The notes under the pieces are model-generated. The model was not told the DNA's origin. It worked only from the letters and a program-made list of their open reading frames with translations, and did no database searches. A stretch of DNA of 64,000 nt, taken from assembly GCA_030428255.1 (NCBI GenBank), contig JAUIBT010000005.1, forward strand, positions 308 through 64,307, read 5' to 3'. Positions 7,107 through 60,151 of the stretch are shown one piece after another. The DNA is from Alphaproteobacteria bacterium (lineage in GTDB: Bacteria > Pseudomonadota > Alphaproteobacteria > UBA7985 > JAUIBT01). The position numbers were made by a program, and so were the translations under genes. Each line of letters opens with the position of its first letter. The stretch's first letter is position 1.

Positions 7107-7464
7107 GAAACCTGAAAGGAGCCTTGGTCAAACCGTTAGAAGGCAGTCCCGAGCGCTGGCCGCGCGAACCGGGATGCAAGGAAGCTGTGAGGCGGGCGCG
7201 CAGCCCACACAAGCGCGAAGCGAGAAGCCTTGGCTCCAAGACAATCTTGTCTCCAAGACAATCTGATCCAAAGAAACCTGCTGGCATCTGCACTCTGGCG
7301 CAGACTAAAGCACGACAATCTTGACCAAATCTTGAGAAAATTATCGTGACCTGGTCTTATCCCAAGACTTGTGCGCAAAGGGGCCTGCTCACACGTGCTA
7401 TGCGTCCCTAGATAGCCAAGCTGTGCCACGCTTTAAAGGGTTTCTCGTGACCTACCCCTTCACA

Positions 7465-8553
7465 ATGTCTCGTGCCGGTTGTCAAAACGCGTCCTTCGCG
7501 GCGCTGGTTGCGGGCCTCGCGATGGTGCTGGGGCTCAGCGGCTGTTTTGGCTTCTATGGCCAGGCGGTGCGTGGACAGAGCGAGATCTTTGTCAAACAGC
7601 GCTCCTTGGCCGCCGTGGTTGCGGACCCCAAAACGCCGCCCGAGACCAAGACCAAACTGCGCCAGGTCCATCGCATTCGCCAGTTCGCAGACCGGCGTTT
7701 GGCGCTGCAAGTCGGCGATAACTATGGCTCTTACGTGGATTTGGAGCGCGACTCGGTGGTCTGGAACGTCATGGCTGCGCCCGAGTTCTCCTTGCGGCCA
7801 AAGACTTGGTGCTACCCGGTGGCGGGCTGTGTGGGTTATCGCGGTTTCTTTTCCAAACTAGACGCTGATCGCTTGGTGGCCGAGCTGCAGGCCCAGGGCT
7901 TTGATGTCTACTCGGGCGGGGTCGATGCCTATTCAACGCTGGGCTTCCTGCGCGACCCGGTGCTCAACACCTTTTTGGACAAGAGCGAGCTGGACTTGGC
8001 CGCGCTGTTGTTCCACGAGCTGGCCCACGCCCGCTTTTACCTCAAAGGCGATACGGCGTTTAACGAGAGCTTTGCCACCACAGTCGAATACGCCGGTCTC
8101 AAGCTTTGGCTGCAAGAGAAGGGCGACAACACCACCTTTGATCGCTACCTGGCCTATGAGGCGGCGCTGGAGCAATTCCGTGCGCTGGTGGGCGAAACCC
8201 GCGCTGAGCTGGCCGCGCTCTACCGCCAGCCCTTAAGCCCTACCGTGATGCGCGCGCGCAAGGCCGAGATCATCACCGAGCTGCGCAACCGCTATCAGCG
8301 CCGCAAGCCTGGGCTGAACGGCGTGTCCTTCGACAAGTGGTTCTTTGCCGATATCAACAATGCCAAGCTGAATTCGGTGGCGACCTATGAGGATTTGGTG
8401 CCTGGCTTTACGGTGATCCTCGAGCGCTGCCAGCAGGACTTTCCCTGCTTTTACGCAGCGGTCGAGCGCTTGGCCAAGCGACCCAAAGCCGAGCGCGACG
8501 CTCTGTTGCGCAATCTGGGCCAGGGGCATCAGGGCCAGGGGAAACAGGGGTAG
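7465..8553 (+). CDS. Predicted zinc aminopeptidase (HExxH, PF10023-like) lipoprotein
   Basis: Start chosen at MSRAGCQNASFAALVAGLAMVLGLSGC (lipobox). HELAHA motif present. The ORF track extends the ORF upstream to 7369. Confidence 0.65.
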   Translation: MSRAGCQNASFAALVAGLAMVLGLSGCFGFYGQAVRGQSEIFVKQRSLAAVVADPKTPPETKTKLRQVHRIRQFADRRLALQVGDNYGSYVDLERDSVVWNVMAAPEFSLRPKTWCYPVAGCVGYRGFFSKLDADRLVAELQAQGFDVYSGGVDAYSTLGFLRDPVLNTFLDKSELDLAALLFHELAHARFYLKGDTAFNESFATTVEYAGLKLWLQEKGDNTTFDRYLAYEAALEQFRALVGETRAELAALYRQPLSPTVMRARKAEIITELRNRYQRRKPGLNGVSFDKWFFADINNAKLNSVATYEDLVPGFTVILERCQQDFPCFYAAVERLAKRPKAERDALLRNLGQGHQGQGKQG

Positions 8554-8559
8554 GTCGCC

Positions 8560-8640
8560 AGCCAGGGGTTTGGCGGCCTGGGGTTTGGCGGCCTGGGGTT
8601 TGGTGGCCTGGGGTTTGGTGGCCTGGGGTTTGGTGGCCTA
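8560..8640. repeat. Tandem array of 15-bp unit GGCCTGGGGTTTGG(C/T), about 5.4 copies
   Basis: Read directly. The array fills the whole intergenic gap between the convergent aminopeptidase gene (stop 8553) and the M23 peptidase gene (stop 8643). Confidence 0.85.
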
Positions 8641-15206: not shown

Positions 15207-16181
15207 CTAGAATCCGACCCAAACGCCCAGATGATAGTTATGAACCTCGAACTCGAACTTTCCGTCAGGCTCGGAGTGGTATTGCTTGTCCGCCGCTGCG
15301 GTGAGCTTCAAGCCAGGGGCAAGCTCATACTGCAAGCCGCCACGCAGAATATTGAACCAGTAGTTCGCGCCCGTCGTCGGTCGATAGAAAAGCTTGGCAT
15401 AGGTCCCAACCAGGTCCAGGTGGCCAAAACTTTGCCGAAACCCTATGGTACCCTGGTGGGCGCCGCCAACGGAGCCCAAGGCTTCCTCTGACACCGCTTC
15501 GCTTGTCACGTAGTTTGCGAACAGGCTGCCGGTCTCATCGAGCCACTCCAGCGATACCGCCGCGAAGTCGTCGCCCAGGCTGACGCCCAGGCCCAGATCT
15601 TCGTAGAGCCAGCCTGCGTCTTCAATCCACACCTGACCGCTAAGCAACCATCGCCCGTCGTCGTCGCTCAAAACGGCGGCGCTCCAGTCGTCAAACTCCA
15701 GCCCCATAGACAGGCGCTGGTCCTCGATGATAAAGAAGTCCTCCAGCGGGTGGCTTTGCCAGTGATCCGATAATTCGTACAGCGACTGCGGCAGGATTTG
15801 CGCCCCGCGATTGTCGCCCACACGCCCGGCTTCGACGAAGAACCCGCCTGCTTCGATGCCCAGCTTCATCTCCTCCAAAAAGGTCCAGCGTACCGGCTGG
15901 CCGTTGGTAAAGCCGATGCCGGTCAGCAGCCCTTCAGCATAAACGCGACGGTCCTGGTCAAAGTGGTGTTCAGCCTCGAATCCCAAACGCGCGGCGGTTG
16001 CAACAAAAACTTCGGTCGGGCGCGGGATACAGCCGCCGCCGCCCGGGGGGCAGGTCTGGGCGTCCGATTCACGATAGAAGGTCTCGACCCCGCCTTTCAG
16101 GCGCAGCTGCGCAGCAGCGCTCCCTGCCAGAAGGCCGGATACAACCGCGGTGATGGTCAAGATCTGGGCGAACTGCCTCAT
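15207..16181 (-). CDS. Outer-membrane beta-barrel protein (hypothetical), secreted
   Basis: Start chosen at MRQFAQILTITAVVSGLLAGSAAA (signal peptide). Alternating amphipathic strands. C-terminal ...LGVWVGF with terminal Phe, typical of OMP barrels. Confidence 0.5.
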   Translation of the reverse strand: MRQFAQILTITAVVSGLLAGSAAAQLRLKGGVETFYRESDAQTCPPGGGGCIPRPTEVFVATAARLGFEAEHHFDQDRRVYAEGLLTGIGFTNGQPVRWTFLEEMKLGIEAGGFFVEAGRVGDNRGAQILPQSLYELSDHWQSHPLEDFFIIEDQRLSMGLEFDDWSAAVLSDDDGRWLLSGQVWIEDAGWLYEDLGLGVSLGDDFAAVSLEWLDETGSLFANYVTSEAVSEEALGSVGGAHQGTIGFRQSFGHLDLVGTYAKLFYRPTTGANYWFNILRGGLQYELAPGLKLTAAADKQYHSEPDGKFEFEVHNYHLGVWVGF

Positions 16182-16395
16182 TTTTGCCGCTTCCTTGTCA
16201 ATATCTCTTTTCTCGTTACGCGATTGAGCCGCGTTGCCCCACCCGCTATCCACATCTTTTCGTTGAGTTGTTGCGGATTGGTTTCTCTCGAAACGGGTCG
16301 GTTTCTAGCCTGGGGTTGTATGCGCAGCGTCGCGCTCAGCCAAACCGGCCTGGGTCTGGCTTTTTGCATTCCGCGACCAGATCGCAATTTCTGTT

Positions 16396-16415
16396 TACTG
16401 ACTGAACAGTCAGTA
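16396..16415. promoter_or_regulatory. Candidate TetR operator: 20-bp palindrome TACTGACTG-aa-CAGTCAGTA
   Basis: Perfect 9-bp inverted arms read directly. Located 14 bp upstream of the tetR start, in the divergent region with the OMP gene. Confidence 0.55.
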
Positions 16416-16428
16416 CTAGTTTTAAGGC

Positions 16429-17154
16429 ATGACCAAAACCGAGACCTCCAAGCCCCAAAACGCCGCGCGCAGCAAATCGCGACGCAGACCAGAAGAGCGG
16501 CCAGACGAGATTCTGGACGCGGCCCTAGAGCTGTTCTTAGCGCAGGGTTTTCATCGCACCACGGTCGAGCAAATCGCCCGTGCAGCGCAGCTCTCCAAAG
16601 GCGCGGTTTATCTCTATTTCCCTGCCAAGCCCGACCTGCTGGTGGCGCTGGTTCGTCGGGGCGTTGGCGGCATGGCTGATCACGCTGCCGCTTTGTTGCG
16701 CAGCCATCAAGGCGACCCGCGCCAAGCGCTGCGCAAGCTCTTCGCCCAAATCGGGCAGCGTGCCCAGCAGAACCCGAACTTTGCCAAAGTCCCGCGACTG
16801 ATCTTGCACGAGGTTCCCACCTCGCCCGAACTGGCGGAGATCTATCGAACGGAGGTTCTGGACAAGGTTTTGCCAGCGCTCGTTGACCTGTTGGCCCGCG
16901 GTGTTGCGGCTGGCCACATCCGCCGCTTGGACCCTGAAATGACAGCGCGTTGCGTCGTTGGGCCCATGCTGGCGCACCTGCTTTTGTCGGAAATCTTCGG
17001 GCTTCAGCCCGCCGCTGGCCTTCAGTGGCAGAGCCTGCTTGAGACCCAACTGAGCCTGCTTGATGCAGGACTTGCGCGCACTGCCGACGCCGCCGCTCGC
17101 CATACGAACCCCGTAAATGATCCCGAGTTAAGCCATGTTCCAGACCTTCTTTGA
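16429..17154 (+). CDS. TetR/AcrR family transcriptional regulator
   Basis: N-terminal HTH (ILDAALELFLAQGFHRTTVEQIARAAQLSKGAVYLYF). Confidence 0.8.
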   Translation: MTKTETSKPQNAARSKSRRRPEERPDEILDAALELFLAQGFHRTTVEQIARAAQLSKGAVYLYFPAKPDLLVALVRRGVGGMADHAAALLRSHQGDPRQALRKLFAQIGQRAQQNPNFAKVPRLILHEVPTSPELAEIYRTEVLDKVLPALVDLLARGVAAGHIRRLDPEMTARCVVGPMLAHLLLSEIFGLQPAAGLQWQSLLETQLSLLDAGLARTADAAARHTNPVNDPELSHVPDLL

Positions 17155-26322: not shown

Positions 26323-26362
26323 CAAACCCCTTGAGAGCCCGCTCGCTCCCAGGGGGTTTTGT
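26323..26362. terminator. Bidirectional terminator hairpin (AACCCC...GGGGGTTTTGTG) between convergent genes
   Basis: A-run, compound GC hairpin and T-run, between the secreted-protein gene and hslU. Confidence 0.45.
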
Positions 26363-26419
26363 GTAGGCGGGTTTTGTGTTGGCTGGGTTCAGATTTGTGG
26401 TGAGTGTGACCTGGAACCT

Positions 26420-35115: not shown

Positions 35116-36003
35116 ATGAGACCAGGCATGAACGGGCGCCGACCGCGCAACCGCAACAACCGTAAATCCCACGTTCCCAATCGGAACCAAGTCTATGAGT
35201 CCTCCGGTCCTGAGAACAAGGTCCGCGGCACGGCTCAGCAGATTTTTGAGAAATATCAGACTCTTGCTCGTGATGCTTTGTCGTCTGGCAACTTGGTGCA
35301 GGCCGAAGCGTTTTTTCAGCACGGCGAGCACTACTTGCGTTTGCACAATATCGCGGTGGAGGCCGCCGCTGAGGCGCAAGAACGCCGCCAGCAGCAGCAA
35401 GGTGAGCGACGCGACACGCGCGGTGAGCGACCAGAACGACCAGAGCACGGCGAACGCCCAGAGCGTGGCGAACGCCCAGAGCGTGGCGAGCGCCCAGAGC
35501 GCGGTGAGCGACCAGAGCGCGGTGAGCGACCAGAGCGCGGCCAAGACAAGCGGCGCGACCGGCGCGACCGCCGGGATCGGCCGGGCGACGACGCAACAGA
35601 CCGCAGCGCAGCCAACCTAGAGGCCAACGACGCAAACGACACCAACCCTGGCGCGAACAAGAGCCCTGCACCCAGTGGTTCGTCGCTTGATCCTTCTGAG
35701 ATGGACCAGCCCGATCTGGGTCAATTGCCCGCTTTCTTGAGCGACAAGCTGCCAGTGCCAGGCGCCAGCAGTGCGGCGGCAGACAGCAGCGGCGATGGCA
35801 CACCCGAGGCGGAAGCCAAGCCCGCTCCCAAACGACGCGGTCGCCCGCCCAAGGCCAAAGTGGCCGAAGACAGCGATTGCGCGCCTGAGGCGGACGCCAA
35901 GCCCGCTCCCAAACGACGTGGCCGTCCGCCCAAGGCCAAAGTGGCCGAAGACAGCGATAGCGCGCCTGCGGGCAACGACGGCGACTTTAGCGACGCAGCC
36001 TGA
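35116..36003 (+). CDS. DUF4167 domain protein with internal GERPER repeats and two AT-hook modules
   Basis: N-terminus MRPGMNGRRPRNRNNRKSHVPNRNQVYESSGPENKVRGTAQQIFEKYQTLARDA matches the conserved alphaproteobacterial DUF4167 N-terminus. Followed by a low-complexity basic/acidic tail. Confidence 0.7.
   Translation: MRPGMNGRRPRNRNNRKSHVPNRNQVYESSGPENKVRGTAQQIFEKYQTLARDALSSGNLVQAEAFFQHGEHYLRLHNIAVEAAAEAQERRQQQQGERRDTRGERPERPEHGERPERGERPERGERPERGERPERGERPERGQDKRRDRRDRRDRPGDDATDRSAANLEANDANDTNPGANKSPAPSGSSLDPSEMDQPDLGQLPAFLSDKLPVPGASSAAADSSGDGTPEAEAKPAPKRRGRPPKAKVAEDSDCAPEADAKPAPKRRGRPPKAKVAEDSDSAPAGNDGDFSDAA
35422..35540 (+). repeat. In-frame 18-bp tandem repeat (GGYGARCGMCCAGAGCGY) encoding GERPER x6 (first copy separated by a PEH insert)
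   Basis: Read directly: GERPERPEHGERPERGERPERGERPERGERPERGERPERG within the DUF4167 gene. Confidence 0.7.
35803..35964 (+). repeat. In-frame 81-bp tandem duplication encoding PEA(E/D)AKPAPKRRGRPPKAKVAEDSD(C/S)A (AT-hook RGRP motif) x2
   Basis: Two 81-bp units differing at about 6 nt, inside the DUF4167 gene. KRRGRPPKAK is an AT-hook-like minor-groove DNA-binding motif. Confidence 0.75.
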
Positions 36004-37435: not shown

Positions 37436-38560
37436 ATGCCACAGACCCCCACCATCGAAGCCAGTATCAAGGCCGAGGCCCGCGCGCTGGGCTTTGACGC
37501 TGTGGCCATCACCCCCGCCGCTCTGCCCGACATCACCCAGGCTCGCTATCGCGCCGCGCTGGATCAGGGCTGGCACGCGGGCATGGATTGGCTGGCCGAG
37601 CGCGCCCAGCAGCGCCGCCACCCGCAAGGTCTGTGGCCGCAGGCGCGTTCGGTCATCGTGCTGGCCGCAAACTACGGTCCCGACCACGACCCGCTGGAGG
37701 GACTGGCCGACCCCGGCCGCGCAGTGATTTCGGTCTATGCTCAGAACCACGACTACCACGACCTGGTCAAGAAGCGGCTGAAGGCGTTGGGCCGCTGGAT
37801 GCAGTCCCGCTATGGCGGTGAGCTGAAGGTCTTTGTCGATACCGCGCCCGTGCTGGAAAAGCCGCTGGCTGCGCAGGCTGGGATTGGCTGGCAGGGCAAG
37901 CATTCAAACCTGGTCAGCCGCGACTTTGGCTCTTGGCTGTTTTTGGGCGAAATCTTCACCACGCTGGAGCTGGCCGCCGATGCGCCCGAGGTCGATCACT
38001 GTGGCTCCTGCACGCGCTGCATCACCGCCTGTCCGACCGGCGCGATTGTCGAGCCCTACCGCTTGGACGCGCGGCGTTGCCTGGCTTATCTCAACAACGA
38101 GCATCACGGTCCGATTCCGCGCGCCTACCGGGCGGCCATGGGCAACCGGGTCTATGGCTGCGACGACTGCCTGGCGGTCTGTCCTTGGAACAAGTACGCC
38201 CAGGCCAGCAAGGAAGCCGCCTTTCAGCTCCGCCCCAGCCTGGAAGGCGCGCGGCTGGAGGATTTTTTGAGCCTGGATGATGGCGCCTTTCGTGCGCTGT
38301 TTTCCAAGTCGCCGATCAAGCGACTGGGCCGCGACCGCTTCTTGCGCAACCTGGTCATTGCTTGCGGAAACTCGGGGCTAGCGCACTATGTACCCGCTCT
38401 GACCGCGTTGCTTGGCGATGACGCGCCGGTGGTGCGGGGGGCAGCGGTCTGGGCCCTGGCCGCGCTGCTGGAGCCCGCCGCCTGGCGAGCGCTCAAGGCC
38501 GCCCACCTGCCCGGCGAGAGCGACCCGGATGTGCGCACGGAGTGGGAGGTTGGCGCTTAG
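37436..38560 (+). CDS. queG: Epoxyqueuosine reductase
   Basis: Two 4Fe-4S ferredoxin motifs (CGSCTRCITACPTGA, CDDCLAVCPWN). Cobalamin-binding N-terminus. C-terminal HEAT-like repeats. Confidence 0.85.
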   Translation: MPQTPTIEASIKAEARALGFDAVAITPAALPDITQARYRAALDQGWHAGMDWLAERAQQRRHPQGLWPQARSVIVLAANYGPDHDPLEGLADPGRAVISVYAQNHDYHDLVKKRLKALGRWMQSRYGGELKVFVDTAPVLEKPLAAQAGIGWQGKHSNLVSRDFGSWLFLGEIFTTLELAADAPEVDHCGSCTRCITACPTGAIVEPYRLDARRCLAYLNNEHHGPIPRAYRAAMGNRVYGCDDCLAVCPWNKYAQASKEAAFQLRPSLEGARLEDFLSLDDGAFRALFSKSPIKRLGRDRFLRNLVIACGNSGLAHYVPALTALLGDDAPVVRGAAVWALAALLEPAAWRALKAAHLPGESDPDVRTEWEVGA

Positions 38561-38588: not shown

Positions 38589-40097
38589 TTAATTCTGATC
38601 TTGAGGGTCGGTCGGAGGTTTGGGAAATCGACTGACGATCTTGTCCCAAATCGGGGTCTTTCTTGCACCTGACTCCTTGTTGCCAGCATAGGGCATTTTG
38701 TCGGCAGGGTTAAAGGCTATTTGCTCCAAGACCATAGCAGCAATTTCTCCCCTATAGTCTTCAGCTTGCTTGCTGAAGCCCTCAATCGAGACTGCCATAG
38801 AGTACTTGTATGAATAGTGTTCGCGCAATCGAAAGAGCGACGCGTGTCGCCTAGAGGCGAATGACACAAACCAAATTGCTGGCAGCAAAATAACATAGCG
38901 CCCAAAGACTTGCCCAAGATATTGCCAACTCGTGGGCTCTCCTAGTGGTTTGGGATCGTATACCAGATTTGTCAAATTCGGCCATATCTGCTGCAAGATC
39001 GGTAGAGCGACTGGCAGCGCAACGTGCAGCAGCAGCGGCACTGCCGAAACAAACAAGATCCCAATGCCGAAATAAAAGACCCACCGCGCCCTGTCTAGCT
39101 GCCGATCCAGATCATTTCGCGCGTCCCCGAAGCTGCTCGCCAACCCAGCTGCAGTAGCACCCGTCAGCATTGATTCGCTTTTCGAAATTAATTCGGCAAC
39201 TTGCACTTTGTTAGATTCAAATACTTTAAACAACGCTTTTTGTTGTTCGAGACCATCTTTGAGATTTACCATTCTTTCATCTAATGCTTTATCAAATTCG
39301 CGAAATTGATTTCTATACGCACTTACTTCTTTTTCCAATGACGAAGCATTTTCATATATTTCGTTAATTTGATTTCTTTTTGTTGCGGATGATTCCAAAT
39401 TGTCGTCAATTTCGTTATTTATTTCGATGGATTTAGACAATAATGATTCGATGTTTATTTTTGCAGAATCAAAATTTCTTAATATTTCTTTCAATTTGAT
39501 ATAATTAGTGTTTGCGTTATCTTTTATTTTATTTATTTTTGTAAGTTTATTTTCTTGCTCTTCTAGGATGTTTGATAGTATTTCAGAAATTGCTCCAAAT
39601 TTAATTTTGTTAATATTTGGTAACACTATAGTTGATACTGTATAAAAGTGCTCCAATAATTTTTCAGTACCATCTACAAGATTCTTAAATAGAGAAGAAA
39701 AATCATGCGCTTGTGAGTTGTTTGCTAATATGTGGAAATTTTCGTAACTAAATGATTGAATACCGCCATTGTTGTTAATAAATGTTTCAAATTTGGTTTT
39801 AATATCTTGTAAACGTGCATCAACCTCGTTGATTGCCGCATCCAAATCTTGGTATCGCAATTTCGGGGTCATGATTGCCCTCTTAGAGTCAGCCATACTT
39901 TTGGCCAAATCGGCAACGGTCAACAGCCGAGTCAGGCAATCCGCATAATTGAGGTCCCTGCCGGGTACCTCTTTGCTGATATCAAAAATCGGCTCCCCAC
40001 TTTTGGTCAACTTACGAAAGTCGCTTTTAAGCGCCTTTGCCTTGGCAGCGAGGGATTGCAGCTTGTCGATGATCTGCTGGAGGGCTTCTTGTCTCAT
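38589..40097 (-). CDS. Low-GC orphan gene: 502-aa coiled-coil protein with C-terminal two-transmembrane module (likely horizontally acquired; function unknown)
   Basis: Reverse-strand ORF. Its codon usage is unlike its neighbours (AAT/AAA/ATT/TTT-rich, central part about 30% GC). Residues 1-330 are predicted coiled coil (K/E/N/I/L-rich heptads). Then two hydrophobic helices (WVFYFGIGILFVSAVPLLLHVALPVALPIL, YVILLPAIWFVSFA) and an 80-aa charged tail. No known catalytic motif recognised. Confidence 0.6.
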   Translation of the reverse strand: MRQEALQQIIDKLQSLAAKAKALKSDFRKLTKSGEPIFDISKEVPGRDLNYADCLTRLLTVADLAKSMADSKRAIMTPKLRYQDLDAAINEVDARLQDIKTKFETFINNNGGIQSFSYENFHILANNSQAHDFSSLFKNLVDGTEKLLEHFYTVSTIVLPNINKIKFGAISEILSNILEEQENKLTKINKIKDNANTNYIKLKEILRNFDSAKINIESLLSKSIEINNEIDDNLESSATKRNQINEIYENASSLEKEVSAYRNQFREFDKALDERMVNLKDGLEQQKALFKVFESNKVQVAELISKSESMLTGATAAGLASSFGDARNDLDRQLDRARWVFYFGIGILFVSAVPLLLHVALPVALPILQQIWPNLTNLVYDPKPLGEPTSWQYLGQVFGRYVILLPAIWFVSFASRRHASLFRLREHYSYKYSMAVSIEGFSKQAEDYRGEIAAMVLEQIAFNPADKMPYAGNKESGARKTPIWDKIVSRFPKPPTDPQDQN

Positions 40098-40149
40098 GCC
40101 GTCAACTCAGTTGTAGAGGTCGAGCAGAGATCCTATGGTCTCGCTGCGA

Positions 40150-40166
40150 TTTATACAGTATAAATT
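40150..40166. promoter_or_regulatory. 17-bp perfect palindrome ATTTATAC-A-GTATAAAT (also a -10-like TATAAAT) 53 nt upstream of the island gene
   Basis: Read directly. Followed by a second inverted repeat CAATAT-tctc-ATATTG at 40171-40186. Confidence 0.4.
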
Positions 40167-40354
40167 ACGCAATATTCTCATATTGCGAGTCTGTCGTAAC
40201 TCTCCCATCATCAGCCCGCCTGCGCTGAGGCCTGAAACTGCATCCCTGAAAACGCACCCCTGAAAACACATCAGAGACATGAGCCGCCCGCTTGGGCTGG
40301 CAAAGGGGGGCGGGTGGCCAAGTTGGTCTGCCAAGTTGGTCGGCCCGTTTGGCC

Positions 40355-41689
40355 CTAACCCTTGGGCAAGGACTGCTTGATCGCCAGCTCCAGCTTGCTC
40401 ACCACTTCGGGGATTTGCGCGTCGGTCATAATGAAGGGCGGGGCCAACAGGACGTGATCACCAACGCGCCCGTCACGGGTGCCGGACATGGGATAGCAGA
40501 TCAGGCCGGCCTCCTGGGCGGCTTTCTTGATCTTAGCGGCCACGGCCAACCCCGGATCAAAGGGCGTCTTGGTCTCACGATCGGCCACCAACTCGACGCC
40601 TCGGAACAAGCCGCGCCCCCTGATATCGCCGATATTGGGGTGCTGGCCCAGAGCCTGACGCAGCGCCGCGTCCAACTTATCACCCAGCGCCGAGACGCCC
40701 GCCACCAGCCCGCGATCCAGCAGCGCGCGCACCACTGCCAGGCCCGCCGCGGTTGCCACCGGATGGCCCAGGTAGGTGTGGCCGTGCTGGAAAAAGCCCG
40801 TTCCGGTCTCGATGGTCTCATAGATGGCCTTGCTGCACAGCATGGCACCAATCGGCTGATAGCCCGCGCCTAAGCCCTTGGCGATACAGATGATATCGGG
40901 CTCTACGCCGTCGGCCTCGCAAGCGAACAGGTGGCCGGTGCGACCCATGCCGCACATAACCTCGTCCAATATCAGCAGTACGCCGTAGCGATCACAGATC
41001 TCGCGCACACGCTGGAAATAGCCCGGCGCGGCAGGCACCGCGCCCAGCGTCGCGCCGACCACAGGTTCGGCGATAAAGGCCATAACACTGTCGGCACCCA
41101 GGCGCAGAATTTCGTCCTCCAGCTCCTGAGCCACCCGCAGGCCGTAGTCCTCCAGGCTCTCATCATCGGGCTTTTCGGCGTAGGCGTAGCAAGGCGCGAT
41201 GTGGCTGACCTCAATCAGCAGCGGCGCGAATTGGGCGCGACGCCAAGCATTGCCGCCAGCCGACAGCGCGCCCAGTGTGTTACCGTGATAGGACTGACGG
41301 CGCGCGATCAGGTGGCGACGCTGGGGCTCGCCGCGCTCGACGTGGTACTGGCGCGCCAGCTTGATCGCAGCCTCTGTGGCTTCAGAGCCGCCCGAGACGA
41401 AATAGACCCGGTCGATGTCCCCCGGCGCGTTGGCGACCAACAAGTCGGCCAGCGCCTCGGCAGGCTCTGAGGTGAAAAAGCTGGTATGGGCGAATGCCAG
41501 TTGCGCCACCTGCTCTTGGATGGCGCGCACCACCTCGGCGTCAGAGTGCCCGAGGCAGGAGACCGCCGCGCCTCCCGAGCCATCGAAGTAGCGCTTGCCC
41601 TTGGCATCGATCAGATAGCAACCATCGCCCGCGACCGCCGTTGGCAGGGCTGATTTGGTATGACGGGGGAATACGTGAGAGCGGCTCAT
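40355..41689 (-). CDS. Class-III (aspartate aminotransferase family) PLP-dependent aminotransferase
   Basis: Class-III fold motifs (YFVSGGSEATEAAIKLAR, LLILDEVMCGMGRTGHLFA) and the Schiff-base Lys region ICIAKGLGAG. Start ATG overlaps the upstream gene stop by 1 nt (TGATG). Confidence 0.8.
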   Translation of the reverse strand: MSRSHVFPRHTKSALPTAVAGDGCYLIDAKGKRYFDGSGGAAVSCLGHSDAEVVRAIQEQVAQLAFAHTSFFTSEPAEALADLLVANAPGDIDRVYFVSGGSEATEAAIKLARQYHVERGEPQRRHLIARRQSYHGNTLGALSAGGNAWRRAQFAPLLIEVSHIAPCYAYAEKPDDESLEDYGLRVAQELEDEILRLGADSVMAFIAEPVVGATLGAVPAAPGYFQRVREICDRYGVLLILDEVMCGMGRTGHLFACEADGVEPDIICIAKGLGAGYQPIGAMLCSKAIYETIETGTGFFQHGHTYLGHPVATAAGLAVVRALLDRGLVAGVSALGDKLDAALRQALGQHPNIGDIRGRGLFRGVELVADRETKTPFDPGLAVAAKIKKAAQEAGLICYPMSGTRDGRVGDHVLLAPPFIMTDAQIPEVVSKLELAIKQSLPKG

Positions 41690-42540
41690 CACTGGGTGTC
41701 CTTAATAGAAGGCGAAGGGGAGGCGGGCCACAGGCCCTTGGCGCTGGCGCGTGCAATCAAGGCGCGCAGCGAGGCGGCATTGTCGGGGAGCAGGCGGCCA
41801 TCACGGTCGTGTATGTTGTTCTCAAAACCGATGCGCGCGCCGCCGCCCATGGCCCAAGCGGCCAAGAGGCAGTCGATTTCCTGTGGGCCAAAGGCGCACA
41901 CGCTCCAGGACCAGCGCCAAGCGGGCGGCTGGTCATCGGATGGCTGGTCATTGAGAGTGGGAGCCCGGCAGGCGATGGCTGACAAGAGGGAGGAGAGCTC
42001 TTGCGGTTGGCCAAAGCGCGCCGGGCTATAGCCCCCCAGAACAAAGATGACCTCGCGTTGCAGCGGGCCAAGCAGACCTTGTTGGTCCCAAGCTTCAAGC
42101 TGAGGCAGGCAGTCTGGGGTATGGAGAATGTGTTGAACGCGGGTTCCAACCTCGCGGCACAAGGCATAGACGCGCGCGGCCAAATCGGGTTCGCGCGCCA
42201 TTTCACGCACCGAAATGCTGGCCGCCGCTGGCCGCAGGTCTTCTAAACAGGCGAGTTGTTGAGCGACGCTGAAAACGCCCGCGCTTTCGGTGGTGATTTG
42301 GATCGCCAGACCCGGCACGGCCTCCGCGATGGCGGCTATGGCCTCGCGATAGCGTCCGGCATCCAGGCTGTGGCGTTGCTCCTTATCGCGCACATGCAGG
42401 TGCAAGCTGTCGCCGCCAGCGGCAAAACACCTGCGCGCCGTTTCGGCCAACTCTTGGGGAGAGATCGGCAGGAGTGGATGGTCGGCCTTGGTGCGGCGCG
42501 CACCGTTGGGCGCCACCATCAGCGGCGGGCGGGCGATCAT
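41689..42540 (-). CDS. 3-keto-5-aminohexanoate cleavage enzyme family (BKACE/DUF849) protein
   Basis: N-terminus MIARPPLMVAPNGARRTKADHPLLPISPQELAETARRCFAAGGDSLHLHVRD matches the BKACE TIM-barrel family signature. ATGA overlap with the upstream gene. Confidence 0.75.
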   Translation of the reverse strand: MIARPPLMVAPNGARRTKADHPLLPISPQELAETARRCFAAGGDSLHLHVRDKEQRHSLDAGRYREAIAAIAEAVPGLAIQITTESAGVFSVAQQLACLEDLRPAAASISVREMAREPDLAARVYALCREVGTRVQHILHTPDCLPQLEAWDQQGLLGPLQREVIFVLGGYSPARFGQPQELSSLLSAIACRAPTLNDQPSDDQPPAWRWSWSVCAFGPQEIDCLLAAWAMGGGARIGFENNIHDRDGRLLPDNAASLRALIARASAKGLWPASPSPSIKDTQ

Positions 42541-44966
42541 GACAGCGCCCCTTTCATTCGCAGGCCTTGGGGGTCAAAGGCCGGTGCGGTTTGCACCCGC
42601 GCGGTAAAGCGCTGCCCGGTCACTTCCACCTCGACCTGGCTTGGCCAAGGCGTATCGCCATTCGGGCGCTTTAGGTGCGCCAGGGCCAGCGGCTTGCCGA
42701 GGCGATAGCCAAAGCTGGCTGAGCTGGTGGTGCCCAGGATGCGCCCGGCGCTGCGCACCGGCTCGTGGCCCAAAGGGCAGGCCTTAGGGTCGTCGAACAC
42801 CAGGCTCACCAGGCTGCGATGGCTGGTCTTGCGGCGTTCGGCCAGGGCAGCGGCTCCCAAGTAGTCCTTGGTCTTAGAGGCCAAGCCCGCCAAACCGGTC
42901 TCAACCGGGCTGATATCGCTGTCCAGCTCGTGACCCATGGCGGCAAAGCCCTTCTCAATGCGCATCGAGGTCTGGGCATAGAGGCCAGCAGGCTCAGCGC
43001 CCGCAGCAATCAAAGCGGCATAGATCGGCGCGGCATTCTCCCACTTACAGGTGAGTTCGAACCCGGCCTCACCGACGTAGGACAGACGCACGGCGCGCAC
43101 ATGTTTGCCCGCGATATGCGCCGGACCGACCTTGAAATAGCCCAGCTCGCACAGCTCGGGCGCGCCGCAGTCGCGCAAGATCTGCGCCGCTTGCGGCCCC
43201 ATGAGGCCCAGCACCGCGTAGTCCTCTGTGCTATCGGTCAGGCGAACATCGTAGCCCTCGCCGTGGCGGCGCAGCCAGGCCAGATCGCGCTTGATGGCCG
43301 CCGTGCCGACGAACAGGCGATAGTGATCGTCCGCGATGCGCTGGGCCGTGATGTCGCTGGCGTAGGTGCCTTGCTCGGTCAATAGTGCGGTATAGATGGC
43401 TGAACCCGCGGGCTTATCCATGTTGGCCGCACAGACCCATTGCAAGAAGGTCAGAGCCTCGGGCCCCTGCACCTCAATCTTGCCAAAGCACGAGGCGTCA
43501 AAGATGGCGGCGCGCTGGTGGGCGGCCTCGACCTCGCGGCCCACTTGCTCGAACCAATCGGGGCGGCCAAAGCGCAGGTGCGGTGCGCCCTCATCGCCCA
43601 CGCTGGTCTTGTTGAAATACAGCGGCCGCTCCCAGCCATAGAATTGACCAAAGGCCGCGCCGGCGGCCTCATAGGCGTCGTGCAGCGCCAGCTTGCGCAG
43701 GCCGCGCGCGCTCTTGAGCTGGCGGCCTGGGTAGGTGATTTCGTAATGCGTACCAAGGATTTCTGGCGCCCGGGCCATCAGGTGCTCGACCGAATTGAAG
43801 ACCGGTGCAAAGCGCTGCGCGTCGGCCTCGCTCAGATCGTAGGCGCTGCGGCCATGGACAATGCAGTGTGCCAGGTTCATGCCCGCGCCCCCGCCCGAGG
43901 CCAGCCCGACCGAATTCATGCCACAGCCCAAAAACAAGCCGCGCGTCTCGGCGGTCTCGCCCAGCATGAACATGCCGTCGGGGGTGAAGCTTTCCGGACC
44001 ATTGAGCAGCATTTTAACCTCCGCTTCGGCCAGGCCTGGCAGGCGGTGCAGTGCGCCTTCCATCATGGGCTCGAAGTGGTCCCAGTCCTCGGGCAGCAGG
44101 CCGAATTGGAAATCCGAGCCCAAGACGCCGGGCGCAATCGGCTTGCCCATGGGCTCGAAACAGCCGACCAGCAGGCCGCCGCTGTCGTCGCGAATATAGA
44201 GATGGCTGTCGTGATCGCTGAGCGAGGGCAGGTTGCCGTTGATGCCCGCAATGGGCTTGGTCAATAGGTAGAAGTGCTCGCAGGCCAGCAAGGGCACCTC
44301 CGCGCCCGCCATGGCCCCCGCCTCGCGCGACCAGAGGCCGGTGCAGAGCGCGATGGCGTCGCAACGGATGGTGCCGCGCGCAGTCTCGACCCCGCGCACG
44401 CGCCCGCCCTCGGTCAGAATGCCGGTGACGCCGGTATCTTCGAAGATGCGCGTACCGCGCGTCTTGGCGGCCTTGACCAGCGCCGCGCAAACATCGCTAG
44501 GCGAGACGCGGCCATCGTCGGGCGACCATACCGCGCCGATCACATCGTCAGCGTTCATCAGCGGCCAGCGCTCCTTGGCCTCACCCGCGCTGATGGCCTC
44601 AGCGCGCACGCCATAGGCTTTGGCCAGCGCTTCCTGGCGCAGAATATGGTCCAGGCGGCCAGGATTGGTGGCGATGGACAGCGAGCCCTTCTGAATCCAG
44701 CCCACGGCTTGGCCGGTTTCCTGTTCCAGGCGGCTGTAGAGATCGACCGAATACTGGATCATGCGGGTTAGGTTCTGCGAGCTGCGCAGCGCGCGCACTT
44801 GCGCCGCCGAGTGCCAGGTGGTGCCAGAGGTCAGCTTGTTGCGCTCCAGCAGTATGGCGTCACTTACGCCCATCGCGGCCAAGTGATAGAGCGTTGAACA
44901 CCCCATAATTCCGCCGCCGATAACGACAACGGAAGCCTGTGAGGGAAGGTCAGACGATGCGGACAT
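42537..44966 (-). CDS. FAD-dependent oxidoreductase fused to GcvT-like folate-binding domain (dimethylglycine/sarcosine dehydrogenase family)
   Basis: 809 aa. N-terminal DAO dinucleotide fold (VVVIGGGIMGCSTLYHLA). C-terminal aminomethyltransferase fold (GYFKVGPAHIAGKHVRAVRLSYVGEAGFEL). Confidence 0.8.
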   Translation of the reverse strand: MSASSDLPSQASVVVIGGGIMGCSTLYHLAAMGVSDAILLERNKLTSGTTWHSAAQVRALRSSQNLTRMIQYSVDLYSRLEQETGQAVGWIQKGSLSIATNPGRLDHILRQEALAKAYGVRAEAISAGEAKERWPLMNADDVIGAVWSPDDGRVSPSDVCAALVKAAKTRGTRIFEDTGVTGILTEGGRVRGVETARGTIRCDAIALCTGLWSREAGAMAGAEVPLLACEHFYLLTKPIAGINGNLPSLSDHDSHLYIRDDSGGLLVGCFEPMGKPIAPGVLGSDFQFGLLPEDWDHFEPMMEGALHRLPGLAEAEVKMLLNGPESFTPDGMFMLGETAETRGLFLGCGMNSVGLASGGGAGMNLAHCIVHGRSAYDLSEADAQRFAPVFNSVEHLMARAPEILGTHYEITYPGRQLKSARGLRKLALHDAYEAAGAAFGQFYGWERPLYFNKTSVGDEGAPHLRFGRPDWFEQVGREVEAAHQRAAIFDASCFGKIEVQGPEALTFLQWVCAANMDKPAGSAIYTALLTEQGTYASDITAQRIADDHYRLFVGTAAIKRDLAWLRRHGEGYDVRLTDSTEDYAVLGLMGPQAAQILRDCGAPELCELGYFKVGPAHIAGKHVRAVRLSYVGEAGFELTCKWENAAPIYAALIAAGAEPAGLYAQTSMRIEKGFAAMGHELDSDISPVETGLAGLASKTKDYLGAAALAERRKTSHRSLVSLVFDDPKACPLGHEPVRSAGRILGTTSSASFGYRLGKPLALAHLKRPNGDTPWPSQVEVEVTGQRFTARVQTAPAFDPQGLRMKGALS

Positions 44967-45109
44967 AGGGGCTGTTACCCAGTGGTGATAGCGCCGAAAA
45001 GGCGGTAGGTGTGACGAAAAATCATGAATGAAAAACAGGATTAGTCAATCAATCAAAAACATAACGATTGTTATTGACGCAGATCCCAACATCCAGCTAG
45101 CCTGACCGC

Positions 45110-45994
45110 ATGGATCCGACGCTGAAGACCAAGACAATTGAAGCCCTGAAACGGGAAGCGGCCACCATGCCGCCACGCCTTAAGTTGGTGGCCAAGTATA
45201 TCGTTGATCATCCGTTGGATTTCGGGCTGGATTCGATCCGCGAAACCGCCCGAAAGTGCGGGGTCTCCACCTATTCGCTCGTGCGATTGGCCGAGCAGCT
45301 CGGCTTTTCCGGCTATGAAGAGCTGCGCGAGCCCTTCCGCCATGCCCTGGTCTCCTCGACCCAGCTTTCCGAGCGTCCGGCTTGGATCGACTCGGTCCGC
45401 CATTCGGGCGAGTTGGGACCAATCCAGGCCGAAGCATCGCTGAATGCCATGGGAATCGTGCAGCGCAGCTTGGAGCGCTTGGCGCCCGAGGATTTGGAGC
45501 GCGCCGTCGCGCTCATGCTGGGCGCACGCAAGGTCTATTTGACAGCCGTGCGCTCGACTTATGCGCTGGCCTATTACTTCCACTATGTCGGCCGCATGGC
45601 GCTGCCCAGTCTGGAGCTGATCCCGCGCCACATGAATTCGGCCATCGATGATTTATCAGACGCCGACGAGCAAGATGTGCTGATGGCGCTGACCTTTACC
45701 CCCTATTCTCGCGAGGTTATCGAGGCTTGTAAGTTCGCAGCCCGGCGCGGAACCAAGATTGTCTTGGTCTCAGACTTTGATGTCATTTCCAGCGAATTTG
45801 AGCCCGAGGTCGCGCTGATTGCGTCGGTCATCTCGACCCACCATTTTGGGGCTTATACAGGCGTCATGGCGGTTCTGGAGGTCTTGCTCGCGGGCCTCGT
45901 TCGCCGTGGCGGTACAGCCGCCAGCAAGCGCATCCAGCGCTATGAAACCTTGCGCCAACAAAATAATGCCTACTGGGTTCGGAAAAAAACATAA
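45110..45994 (+). CDS. RpiR/MurR family transcriptional regulator (HTH_6 + SIS domain)
   Basis: N-terminal HTH (LDSIRETARKCGVSTYSLVRLAEQLGFSGYEEL). C-terminal SIS domain (KVYLTAVRSTYALAYYFHY...KIVLVSD). Divergent from the catabolic operon. Confidence 0.8.
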   Translation: MDPTLKTKTIEALKREAATMPPRLKLVAKYIVDHPLDFGLDSIRETARKCGVSTYSLVRLAEQLGFSGYEELREPFRHALVSSTQLSERPAWIDSVRHSGELGPIQAEASLNAMGIVQRSLERLAPEDLERAVALMLGARKVYLTAVRSTYALAYYFHYVGRMALPSLELIPRHMNSAIDDLSDADEQDVLMALTFTPYSREVIEACKFAARRGTKIVLVSDFDVISSEFEPEVALIASVISTHHFGAYTGVMAVLEVLLAGLVRRGGTAASKRIQRYETLRQQNNAYWVRKKT

Positions 45995-47111: not shown

Positions 47112-47353
47112 ATTCCGGGGCAGATAAGCTAGCCTAGGCGCTTTGCGGTGGCCAAGTCAGGGTCTTGAGACGAAGGCAGTACATCACCAAAGCCAAAGAT
47201 GCCCTTGCTTTAAGCCTTGTTGTGCTTTGAGCCGTGTCTGGCTTTGAGCATTGCTCGCCGTGAGACATTCGGTCTATGATCGAAGGCAAGCTGCGCATCA
47301 CATGCAAGGCGGTCGCGCAGCCCGGGTCTAGCGACAGGGTTCAGCAAAGGTCC

Positions 47354-47434
47354 CACGGAACCACTGGGCGCACGGAAAACTGGGCGCACGGAAAACTGGG
47401 CTCACGGAAAACTGGGCCCACGGAAAACTGGGTT
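47354..47434. repeat. Tandem array of 16-bp unit CACGGAAAACTGGGCN, 5 copies (first copy 17 bp)
   Basis: Read directly. Located 60 nt upstream of the TRAP permease start and 250 nt downstream of the terminator. Confidence 0.85.
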
Positions 47435-53459: not shown

Positions 53460-53681
53460 AACATCGCGAATAGAAGCGACAAAAAAACTGCACTATGGCG
53501 GGCAGTCTTGCCGGTTTGCCATGCGGTCCCGCTGCTGATCGGCAGGACTTGTGCCAGGCCATAATGTGTTAGGGGCCACAATGTGTGAGGGGCCAAAGGC
53601 CAGGCGGCAAAGCATCAAAGTGACCCCGAGGCAGGGGACGAGAGCAATGCGCAGTAGCCGTACAGCGCCCGTGAAGACGCG

Positions 53682-58990: not shown

Positions 58991-60151
58991 ATGATGCGAA
59001 CCTTGACACCCATGCTAAGAAAATTCTGCCTGGCCAAACATCCGGGCAGCCGCAGCAAAGCCGCATCGGTTTTGGGTGCAGCTTTGGCCTGTCTGGCGGT
59101 TGGCCTGCCCCTCGGCCAGGCGTCGGCAGCGCCGCAGGTGGTGACCACCATCGCGCAGATCGGGCAGCCGCTGAGCGTGATTGCGGGTGACTGCTTGCAG
59201 GTGCGCAGTTTGCTTGGCCCTGGTAGCGACCCCCACCTCTATCGCCCGACGCGCTCGGACATGACGGCTTTGTTGACCGCTGATATCCTGGTCCACAACG
59301 GCGCCCATCTGGAGGCGCAGTTCGCCAAGCCGCTGGACCAGTTTGCTAAACGTAAGCCGGTGTTTGAATTGGCGCTGGCGGTGCCCAACGCGGGCTTGAT
59401 GCGCGACAGTGAGCAGGTCACCGACCCGCACTTTTGGATGAACCCTGCGCTGTGGGCGCGCCTGCTGAGCCGCTTGATCGAAGATTTGGTCGGCCATGAA
59501 CAGGCCAGCGCCATGCTGGACCCAGGCTGTGCTGAGCGTTTGCAGGCCGGCGCGCAAGACTATGAAGCCCGACTGCTGGCTCTGGACGCTTGGACCCAGG
59601 CGCTGTTTTCGAACCTGCCCCGCGAGCGGCGCGTGCTGGTCAGCGCGCACGACGCCTTTGGTTATTTTGGCCAACGCTATGATTTTCAAGTCGAGGGCAT
59701 TCAGGGCCTATCCACCGACAGCCAAGCCAGCCTCAAGCGCATGAACGACCTGGCCGAGCTGTTGGTGACGCGCCAGGTGCCGGTGGCTTTTGTCGAAAGC
59801 AGCATCGACCCCAAGAGCATCGAAACGCTGTTGACGCGTGCGGCGGCGCGCGGCGGATCCGTGGCCTTGGGCGACGCGCTCTTTTCCGATGCCATGGGCC
59901 CAGCAGGCAGCCCGGCTGAGACCTACATCGGCATGTTTGCTCATAATGTGCGCGCCATCGTGCGAGGCTTTGGCCTGCAAGAGAACGGCGCGCCTGAAGT
60001 CGGCGAGCAAAAAATTGGCGAGCAAAAAATTGGCGAGCAAGAAATCGGCCAGGGCAGCGCGGCCCAAAAAGCGCTGTACGATTTGGACGTGACCGCGCCC
60101 GACTTTCCGGCGCGGCTTAAGGAGAGACTGCATGTTGATGCGCTCAAGTGA
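58991..60151 (+). CDS. Metal (Mn/Zn) ABC transporter substrate-binding protein (TroA/ZnuA/cluster A-I)
   Basis: Signal peptide (ASVLGAALACLAVGLPLGQASAAP). Metal-site residues (DPHLYRP, DPHFWMNP, SAHDAFGYF). The start is uncertain (58949, 58991 or 59012), and an operator-like inverted repeat lies inside the longest version. Contains an EQKIG x3 repeat. Confidence 0.75.
   Translation: MMRTLTPMLRKFCLAKHPGSRSKAASVLGAALACLAVGLPLGQASAAPQVVTTIAQIGQPLSVIAGDCLQVRSLLGPGSDPHLYRPTRSDMTALLTADILVHNGAHLEAQFAKPLDQFAKRKPVFELALAVPNAGLMRDSEQVTDPHFWMNPALWARLLSRLIEDLVGHEQASAMLDPGCAERLQAGAQDYEARLLALDAWTQALFSNLPRERRVLVSAHDAFGYFGQRYDFQVEGIQGLSTDSQASLKRMNDLAELLVTRQVPVAFVESSIDPKSIETLLTRAAARGGSVALGDALFSDAMGPAGSPAETYIGMFAHNVRAIVRGFGLQENGAPEVGEQKIGEQKIGEQEIGQGSAAQKALYDLDVTAPDFPARLKERLHVDALK

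Follow-up and report, generated by a model that had tools for sequence, protein, structure and literature searches.

Organization of the locus

The window, a 64,000-nt stretch of contig, is chromosomal DNA of a marine roseobacter-group member of the Rhodobacterales, with a G+C content of ~64%. The best genome matches of its aminotransferase were to Leisingera, Phaeobacter, and other Rhodobacterales at ~80% identity, and the presence of holA and queG in the vicinity indicated a chromosomal context. Three genes encoding a gcvT-like oxidoreductase, BKACE, and an aminotransferase form an operon with 4-bp overlaps, and the last of them is separated by a spacer from a gene of low G+C content, hereafter called the island gene (Table 1). 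Within the divergent promoter region of the operon (44967-45109), a single promoter-like site was found on the operon's strand.

Table 1. Features at the locus, in coordinates of the window
Feature	Position	Strand	Remarks
Operon promoter-like site	45048-45021	-	sigma-70-like; within a block conserved among relatives
gcvT-like oxidoreductase gene	42537-44966	-	operon gene
BKACE gene	41689-42540	-	operon gene
Class-III (PRK07483-type) aminotransferase gene	40355-41692	-	third and last operon gene; Pfam Aminotran_3, E 1e-98; NCBIfam NF005685, 763 bits
Aminotransferase stop codon	40355-40357	-	
Spacer between aminotransferase and island gene	40098-40354		257 bp
2 x 13 bp array	40317-40342		GCCAAGTTGGTC(T/G); TRF score 53; starts 13 bp after the aminotransferase stop
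G+C-rich stem-loop	40283-40301	-	GCCaGCCC-AAGC-GGGCGGC; no U-tract; weak operon-terminator candidate
3 x 14 bp array	40231-40272		CCTGAAACTGCATC / CCTGAAAACGCACC / CCTGAAAACACATC; TRF score 53; 79% identity to reference copy
IR2	40168-40187		perfect 8-bp arms CGCAATAT / ATATTGCG, 4-bp spacer
IR1	40149-40165		perfect 17 bp, ATTTATAC-A-GTATAAAT, 8 + 1 + 8
Candidate -10 hexamer TATAAA	40150-40155	-	within TGTATAAAT; 52 bp upstream of ATG; predicted from sequence
Probable leader (5' UTR)	40098-40148	-	~56% G+C; weak Shine-Dalgarno region GAGTTGACGGCATG
Island gene	38589-40097	-	502 aa; N-terminal helical/coiled-coil part, conserved C-terminal membrane-helix domain
Imperfect IR1 copy TTTTATACAGTATCAAC	39631-39647	-	14/17; inside the island gene; encodes F-Y-T-V-S-T
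queG	37436-38560	+	converges on the island gene, 28-bp gap
Other eight arrays (TRF)	7229, 8512, 8561, 26354, 47206, 47354, 53557, 60002		

The GC3 of the island gene was 0.43, versus 0.7-0.8 in its neighbours, and the middle of the gene fell to 26% G+C; many promoter-like A+T-rich sites were present on its antisense strand. The start codon was supported by 23 aligned homologues that begin at the same residue. The protein belongs to a family of ~100 unnamed homologues of ~500 aa and ~40% identity, mostly alphaproteobacterial, and the genes of this family are solitary, often located near integrases or recombinases, and lower in G+C than their hosts. Searches of Pfam, NCBIfam, PADLOC, and PDB sequences with the island protein returned coiled-coil noise only, and a match to PHROG 30912 (function unknown) was obtained at E 3e-8. 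Plasmid and phage records yielded no homologue of the gene, and the only other contigs carrying the exact protein were identical to the window. The AlphaFold model (pLDDT 74) showed helices only, among them a long coiled coil and, at the C terminus, membrane helices, and a fold search with this model gave nothing at E ≤0.001. These features of the predicted product would fit a gene kept silent by its host, and they prove nothing by themselves.

The spacer had been predicted to hold four repeat elements upstream of the island gene, and all four were present, with coordinates that differed by at most 1-2 bases. The perfect 17-bp palindrome placed at 40150-40166 was real and lies one base away (IR1), the CAATAT-tctc-ATATTG repeat placed at 40171-40186 was real but longer, with 8-bp arms (IR2), and the three direct repeats of about 14 bp (given as 40230-40270) and the tandem 13-bp repeat past the stop codon were both recovered. 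The spacer was further said to have far more repeat structure than typical promoters of the window. Its repeat-covered fraction of 40% did rank first among the intergenic regions of the window, with the runner-up at 30%, but eight other arrays of the same kind were found elsewhere in the window. When folded as RNA, the whole spacer was unremarkable (z = -0.5). No Rfam family reached its gathering threshold in the entire window, the single match at E ≤10 under permissive thresholds in the spacer region was a snoRNA model at chance level (15 bits), and ARAGORN found no tRNA anywhere in the window. Comparison of the spacer with the compared loci and with the rest of the window gave chance-level short matches only, and comparison with plasmid and phage records gave no match by DNA or protein. 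An ORF of 75 codons with a TTG start that spans the spacer (40107-40334) was rejected, its translation being of low complexity and the ORF being uncalled in public contigs.

Tandem arrays in the window and in relatives

Arrays found by TRF with a period of 10-20 and a score of at least 50 were treated as one class. Ten such arrays were present in the window, compared to 0.33 per 64 kb in Markov simulations and 0.87 per 64 kb in 80 other Rhodobacterales loci, so that the array density in the window was ~11 times that of the latter. Since only ~0.33 would be expected per 64 kb, both spacer arrays were taken to be real duplications. The units of the ten arrays were unrelated to one another. Most of the eight arrays outside the spacer were stronger than the two inside it, which rank weakest of the ten; seven of the eight were located in or beside non-coding DNA, and one inside a gene. 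Among the nine arrays that were not clearly coding, six lay within ~150 bp downstream of a stop codon. Each unit of the 13-bp array contains a small palindrome, CCAA-N-TTGG, and no further exact copy of the unit was found within the window. The 13-bp array would extend to the stop codon if a possible degenerate copy at 40343-40355 (8/13) is counted as its third. The 14-bp unit, which reads as G/U-rich GGTGCGTTTTCAGG on the transcribed minus strand, showed no enrichment elsewhere in the window. Our search of the literature on intergenic tandem arrays in roseobacters found no paper.

Relatives were reached via the aminotransferase protein, which was 95%, 89%, and 88% identical to that of the window. 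In none of the three was sequence shared with the window past the last aminotransferase codons, and in the 95% relative homology ended at the last three codons. After its stop, the 95% relative carried CCGGCTGAGGTCTGC x3.9 followed by GGCCCTGGGTTTGCGT x7.6. The CCGGCTGAGGTCTGC units contain the aminotransferase's own Gly-stop codons, which indicates local duplication. At the same flank, the 89% relative carried GGGCTCCCAAGATACCCG x2.4 and GCTCCTAGAGTAT x2, and the 88% relative carried CCTACCGGACCCA x2.2. Four lineages therefore had four unrelated sets of arrays at one orthologous stop codon, each starting at or near the stop. Contigs break within arrays, and two samples differed by a one-base indel. 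As a control, we examined the divergent promoter region, which in all four lineages retains a long block of conserved sequence. Since regulatory DNA is conserved at such a distance and the array flank is not, the arrays are read as local duplications in a fast-changing flank.

Short tandem duplications with units of 13-18 bp, which this flank keeps gaining, are most likely the product of replication slippage or of local duplication. Like the variable-number tandem repeats made by slippage, the arrays consist of head-to-tail copies of 13-18 bp with 79-100% identity, and their units differ at orthologous sites. Unlike such repeats, they occur in this lineage at ~11 times the density of other Rhodobacterales, and many of them start at or just after stop codons. 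Judging from their turnover and ubiquity, the arrays appear neutral and would not be needed for control of the island gene; we consider the 2 x 13 and 3 x 14 arrays to be probably unrelated to regulation. Array turnover outpaces 5% protein divergence, and there is a minor possibility that new 13-18 bp arrays are repeatedly created at gene 3' ends by a process distinctive of the lineage, or for a selected function.

Palindromes in the A+T-rich patch

IR1 and IR2 together make up a 39-bp patch located 52-90 bp upstream of the ATG, and this patch (40149-40187) is the only A+T-rich one, set between flanks of normal G+C. The centres of the two repeats are 20.5 bp apart, a distance of two helical turns, and a GANTC site adjoins IR2 at 40187-40191. 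The transcribed minus strand of IR1 has the sequence ATTTATAC-T-GTATAAAT, with TGTATAAAT in the right half. When the 257-bp sequence was shuffled 5,000 times with its dinucleotides preserved, two perfect inverted repeats (arms of at least 8 bp, spacer of at most 6) arose in 0.02% of cases (P ~2e-4). The window as a whole showed no general excess of perfect palindromes, with 9 seen versus ~11.5 simulated.

Recurrence of the palindrome, a point raised in the original prediction and checked within the 64 kb, came down to the marginal 14/17 match inside the island gene. A match of at least 14/17 was reached in 28 of 1,000 simulations of local composition, the residues encoded by the copy are conserved, and the copy is probably due to the coding sequence. 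The 9-mer ATACTGTAT occurs twice in the 64 kb, in IR1 and at 39635. Neither IR1 and IR2 nor similar palindromes were found in the compared loci, those of the relatives included. The upstream regions of 13 island-gene homologues held 2 palindromes versus 1.28 expected, and given this lack of excess the palindromes are not a trait of the gene family; the pair appears to be a local acquisition. Scans of viral contigs for the palindromes hit 55 and 45 contigs, scattered and with one site each in almost every case, which is chance level in a very large A+T-rich collection.

The consensus sequences of CtrA, alphaproteobacterial LexA, enterobacterial LexA/lux-type regulators, sigma-54, EcfG, and IHF gave no match on either strand, those of the first three being TTAA-N7-TTAA, GTTC-N7-GTTC, and CTG-N10-CAG, respectively. 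The spacing in IR1, CTG-N9-CAG, is shorter by one base than that of LexA/lux sites. A Xer/dif-like site was considered and rejected, as the arms of IR1 are 1 bp apart versus 6-8 bp and have no match to dif. Operators of helix-turn-helix dimers (lambda cI/Cro, TetR-type) span 15-20 bp and are symmetric about a central base. IR1, with 17 bp, 8-bp half-sites, one central base, and an overlap with the -10-like TATAAA, and IR2, with 20 bp, resemble them, and both qualify as two-fold symmetric sites of 14-20 bp. The likeness is geometric only; unlike known operators of this type, the spacer site has no adjacent regulator, additional operators, or conservation in homologues. No DNA-binding gene that might encode a cognate regulator lies next to the island gene, and neither the adjacent genes nor the 64 kb yielded a cognate regulator or a recurring site. 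Going by symmetry, position, and statistics alone, we give slightly less than an even chance to IR1/IR2 being a protein-binding control site, and IR1 may be an operator that overlaps a candidate -10 element.

Promoter and terminator candidates

A consensus scan of the minus strand of the spacer found no sigma-70-like promoter. The candidate -10 hexamer in IR1 lacks an acceptable -35 partner, and TATAAA is off consensus in its last base. In a subgroup of homologues, an invariant TGTATAGT is located ~30 nt upstream of the ATG; in the proximal upstream region it is the only invariant block besides the ribosome-binding site, and the subgroup occurs in four genomic contexts. TGTATAAAT resembles TGTATAGT, and this likeness suggests a -10 element inside IR1.

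The GC hairpin of the original prediction does exist as a stem at 40283-40301, but it folds no better than chance: the stem had -12.4 kcal/mol (z = -1.1), and 27 of 200 shuffles folded equally well. Two genuine terminators of the window, by comparison, folded at -23 kcal/mol (z = -3.1) and -26 kcal/mol (z = -6.1). IR2 fits a loose terminator pattern on the minus strand: its stem has 8 pairs, including 3 G-C pairs, and 5 of the 8 bases that follow are U. The centroid of its RNA had -7.8 kcal/mol (z = -0.8). Hits to this pattern numbered 10, versus 11.6 in shuffles. Since IR1 and IR2 are weak as RNA, a role at the DNA level is the likelier one.

A composite reading of the spacer and its rivals

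We propose that the spacer combines two parts with no relation to each other: the G+C-rich 3' flank of the operon (part A, 40201-40354) and the A+T-rich patch (part B, 40149-40187). This composite of neutral arrays and a palindromic control module has, in our estimate, an even chance of being correct. The spacer is an ordinary region, with a putative control function, beside a fast-changing flank. We infer every step of the mechanism that follows, including the IR1 promoter and protein binding to the palindromes. In part A, the weak G+C stem may help to end operon transcripts, for which the spacer would offer no strong terminator. Expression of the island gene would come from low-level read-through or from a weak promoter in IR1. 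Part B would be the core control region of the island gene, in which IR1 and IR2 offer two-fold symmetric sites for dimeric DNA-binding proteins. Alternatively, the A+T-rich patch and the A+T-rich gene body may attract an H-NS-type silencer, with the patch as nucleation point. Once bound, the protein would keep expression low, either by shutting out RNA polymerase or by stopping operon transcripts from reading through; the weak ribosome-binding site points in the same direction.

A+T-rich DNA full of promoter-like sites is of the kind targeted by H-NS-type silencers. The locus resembles such targets in having a foreign gene of low G+C in a genome of 64% G+C, with an A+T-rich patch upstream and promoter-like sites inside, and the island found at the same flank in the 89% relative encodes an H-NS-family protein. 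No H-NS-like gene was found in the window. Compared to the high-affinity H-NS motif TCGATAAATT (Lang et al. 2007, PMC2094087), the TATAAATT of IR1 matches 7/8 of the GATAAATT part, a match that is not significant in A+T-rich DNA and that concerns an enterobacterial motif.

The original prediction had treated the four elements as a single regulatory architecture, and one rival of the composite reading holds just this: the elements would make up one dense cis-regulatory region, with the palindromes as operators and the direct repeats as iteron-like or activator sites. All four elements are non-random, and they share one 257-bp spacer that is the most repeat-dense of the window. However, like arrays with unrelated units occur at seven sites in or adjacent to non-coding DNA and in one gene, arrays, albeit different ones, are also found at this flank in relatives in which another gene comes next, and units of 13-14 bp fall out of helical phase. 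Plasmid iterons are several direct repeats of ~17-22 bp beside a rep gene, together with a DnaA box and an A+T-rich unwinding element. The spacer does have tandem direct repeats upstream of a gene, but its units are of 13 and 14 bp in 2 and 3 copies, neither a Rep domain in the neighbours (aminotransferase, island protein, and queG) nor a DnaA box was found, and the DNA is chromosomal. The proposal of iteron-like sites thus did not hold, and it is very unlikely that the arrays serve as iterons or as sites dedicated to the island gene. We consider the single dense region to be highly improbable: the arrays drop out of it as members of a lineage-wide class in a non-conserved flank, and for the palindromes a site bound by a dimeric repressor is our preferred reading. 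The repeats were also proposed to be an integration or recombination scar, that is, att remnants or ends of an element dating from the joining of the island gene to this flank. The flank does look like a rearrangement hot spot. Past the arrays, the 89% relative has a tRNA-Arg(CCT) and then an A+T-rich island, which is the one encoding the H-NS-family protein, whereas the nap operon is found there in the 88% relative. A relative with a queG of 94% nucleotide identity has kept the last ~28 codons of the island gene, which is interrupted there by an insertion with an IS30-family transposase. The 95% relative, whose contigs end before any island gene, has none within 369 bp after the aminotransferase, so the junction in the window is lineage-specific. 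Island att sites are marked by bracketing direct repeats, often at a tRNA 3' end and with an integrase nearby, and attC sites by RYYYAAC ... GTTRRRY framing an imperfect palindrome. Against a scar, no direct or inverted repeats bracket the island gene, no integrase was found among the neighbouring genes, no attC core GTTRRRY was found in 40090-40360 on either strand, and alignments of tRNA-Arg to the spacer scored below the shuffle mean. A 22-bp repeat that flanks the 3 x 14 array (17/22 matches) was within chance by our own estimate (P ~0.2). Moreover, the 3' end of the island gene adjoins queG in the 94% relative too, so that the gene is older than the divergence of the strains and not a recent arrival. 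None of the 80 aminotransferase loci from GTDB genomes had queG nearby. The scar proposal is left with the circumstantial support of the hot spot, and we regard it as a long shot.

Two further rivals concern the palindromes themselves. IR2 with its T-rich tail could be the intrinsic terminator of the operon, with IR1 supplying the U-tract and the -10, so that the pair would be an insulator and not an operator. On the transcribed strand, the scan picked out CGCAATAT-GAGA-ATATTGCG together with TAATTTATAC as resembling a terminator, and no strong canonical terminator of the operon comes before IR2. Compared to the real terminators of the window, however, the IR2 stem with its three G-C pairs is far less stable, and hits to its pattern were no commoner than in shuffles; this explanation is unlikely. 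The palindromes could also be functionless by-products of error-prone copying, e.g. template switching that turns near-palindromes into perfect ones, and the island gene would then owe its expression to read-through or to a promoter that escaped recognition. The lineage clearly tends towards local duplication, and the palindromes are perfect yet unique, unconserved in the gene family, and without a match to known motifs. We nevertheless consider this improbable, in that the window has no general excess of perfect palindromes, and both palindromes coincide exactly with the A+T-rich patch, which is at promoter distance from the ATG, and their centres are two helical turns apart.

Implications

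If the palindromes are an operator, as the composite reading would have it, they would show how the host keeps a foreign, probably membrane-active gene off, and they would provide a handle on the inducing signal, and hence on the function, of a family of ~100 members. This gain would be modest and local. For the arrays, the finding carries a caution: in this lineage, the presence of tandem repeats near a gene does not count as evidence that the gene is regulated, since such repeats are frequent and evolve fast. Should the arrays have a function, e.g. as landing pads for proteins or as elements of termination or of the 3' end, or should they reflect an unusual defect in replication or repair, they would represent a new feature of genome architecture, of which the two arrays in the spacer would be two instances. 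The lineage-wide habit of forming arrays is a more curious result than the spacer itself, and it may merit a genome-wide study.

Tandem arrays and other repeats

Ten tandem arrays with units of 13-17 bp and mutually unrelated sequences were found in the window, including the two in the 257-bp spacer upstream of the island gene, compared with ~0.3 in simulations and ~0.9 per 64 kb at other Rhodobacterales loci. The ten arrays were mostly located in non-coding DNA directly past stop codons. Relatives whose aminotransferases were 88-95% identical each carried their own unrelated arrays, beginning at this gene's stop codon or close to it, and in the two contigs with a 95%-identical gene (L112 and L114) the array unit took in the Gly-stop codons of the aminotransferase itself. 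Homology between the relatives and the window ended at the last three aminotransferase codons. The window's array of GCCTGGGGTTTGGTG was similar in style to one in L114 (GGCCCTGGGTTTGCGT, 7.6 copies, 3284-3407).

Other repeats were also observed in the window. The 283-bp spacer between genes 15207-16253 and 16537-17103 contains a perfect palindrome whose arms are 9 bp long, TACTGACTG-AA-CAGTCAGTA (16396-16415); this palindrome is a candidate operator. Long in-frame tandem repeats were present within an ORF encoding a repetitive protein.

Coordinates of repeats and neighbouring features in the window and in relatives
Feature	Sequence	Position	Detail
Tandem array	Window	7229-7264	
Tandem array	Window	8512-8549	
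Tandem array	Window	8561-8639	GCCTGGGGTTTGGTG, 5.3 copies
Tandem array	Window	26354-26389	
Tandem array	Window	47206-47253	
Tandem array	Window	47354-47432	
Tandem array	Window	53557-53595	
Tandem array	Window	60002-60049	
In-frame tandem repeat	Window	35434-35541	18/36 bp, 6 copies; ORF 35116-36003
In-frame tandem repeat	Window	35792-35968	81 bp, 2.2 copies; ORF 35116-36003
Divergent region	Window	44967-45109	From RpiR-family regulator gene (45110-45994) to operon
Array(s) at or near aminotransferase stop	L112	6328-6499	
Array(s) at or near aminotransferase stop	L114	3169-3407	
Array(s) at or near aminotransferase stop	L115	6376-6439	
Array(s) at or near aminotransferase stop	L116	6417-6445	
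tRNA-Arg(CCT)	L115	6624-6700 and downstream	Followed by island of 38-50% G+C with H-NS-family gene
nap operon	L116	6900-11377	
IS30-family element	L110	825-1918	Inside 3' part of island gene

The aminotransferase/queG neighbourhood

The DNA around the aminotransferase and queG is a rearrangement hot spot, and what occupied it in three relatives (L115, L116, and the queG relative L110) is listed in the table. In L114, a tRNA-like stretch (3455-3530) started like a relative's tRNA-Arg (CCCCCGTAGCTCAG...CCTAAGCG); no tRNA was called in this stretch by ARAGORN, and it may be a decayed tRNA marking an old integration site. Soon past it the contig ended, within A+T-rich DNA. At the other end of the operon, a block (GTCAATAACAATCGTTATGTTTTTGATTGATTGACTAATCTTGTTTTTCATTCATGATTTT) was kept in all relatives within the divergent region. 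The motif TTGA(T/C)T recurs in this block, which also contains a promoter-like site and is probably the operon's true operator/promoter.

The island gene and its upstream DNA

The G+C content of the island gene (38589-40097) was highly uneven: each end had ~50-56%, and the middle (39200-39800) only 26%. This middle codes for an N/K/I/E-rich coiled coil, the part least conserved among homologues, and a mosaic or fast-evolving central segment is suggested. The family shares a strongly conserved C-terminal block, SLFRLREHYxYKYSMAVSVEGF...FNPADK. A 12-kb scan gave eight sigma-70-like promoter matches, four of which were antisense within the A+T-rich middle (39332-39660, plus strand), with a fifth antisense match in the gene at 39920-39949. 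Antisense promoter-like matches inside an A+T-rich gene are typical of foreign A+T-rich DNA requiring silencing.

In a subgroup of homologues (loci L083, L102, L105, and L106; alignment A3), ~100-250 bp of the ~300 bp of upstream DNA examined was conserved, the stretch being shorter in L105 than in the other three. Within it TGTATAGT was invariant, and a GGAG ribosome-binding site was also included. This conservation persisted across four unrelated genomic contexts, and the mobile unit evidently brings its own long leader or promoter along.
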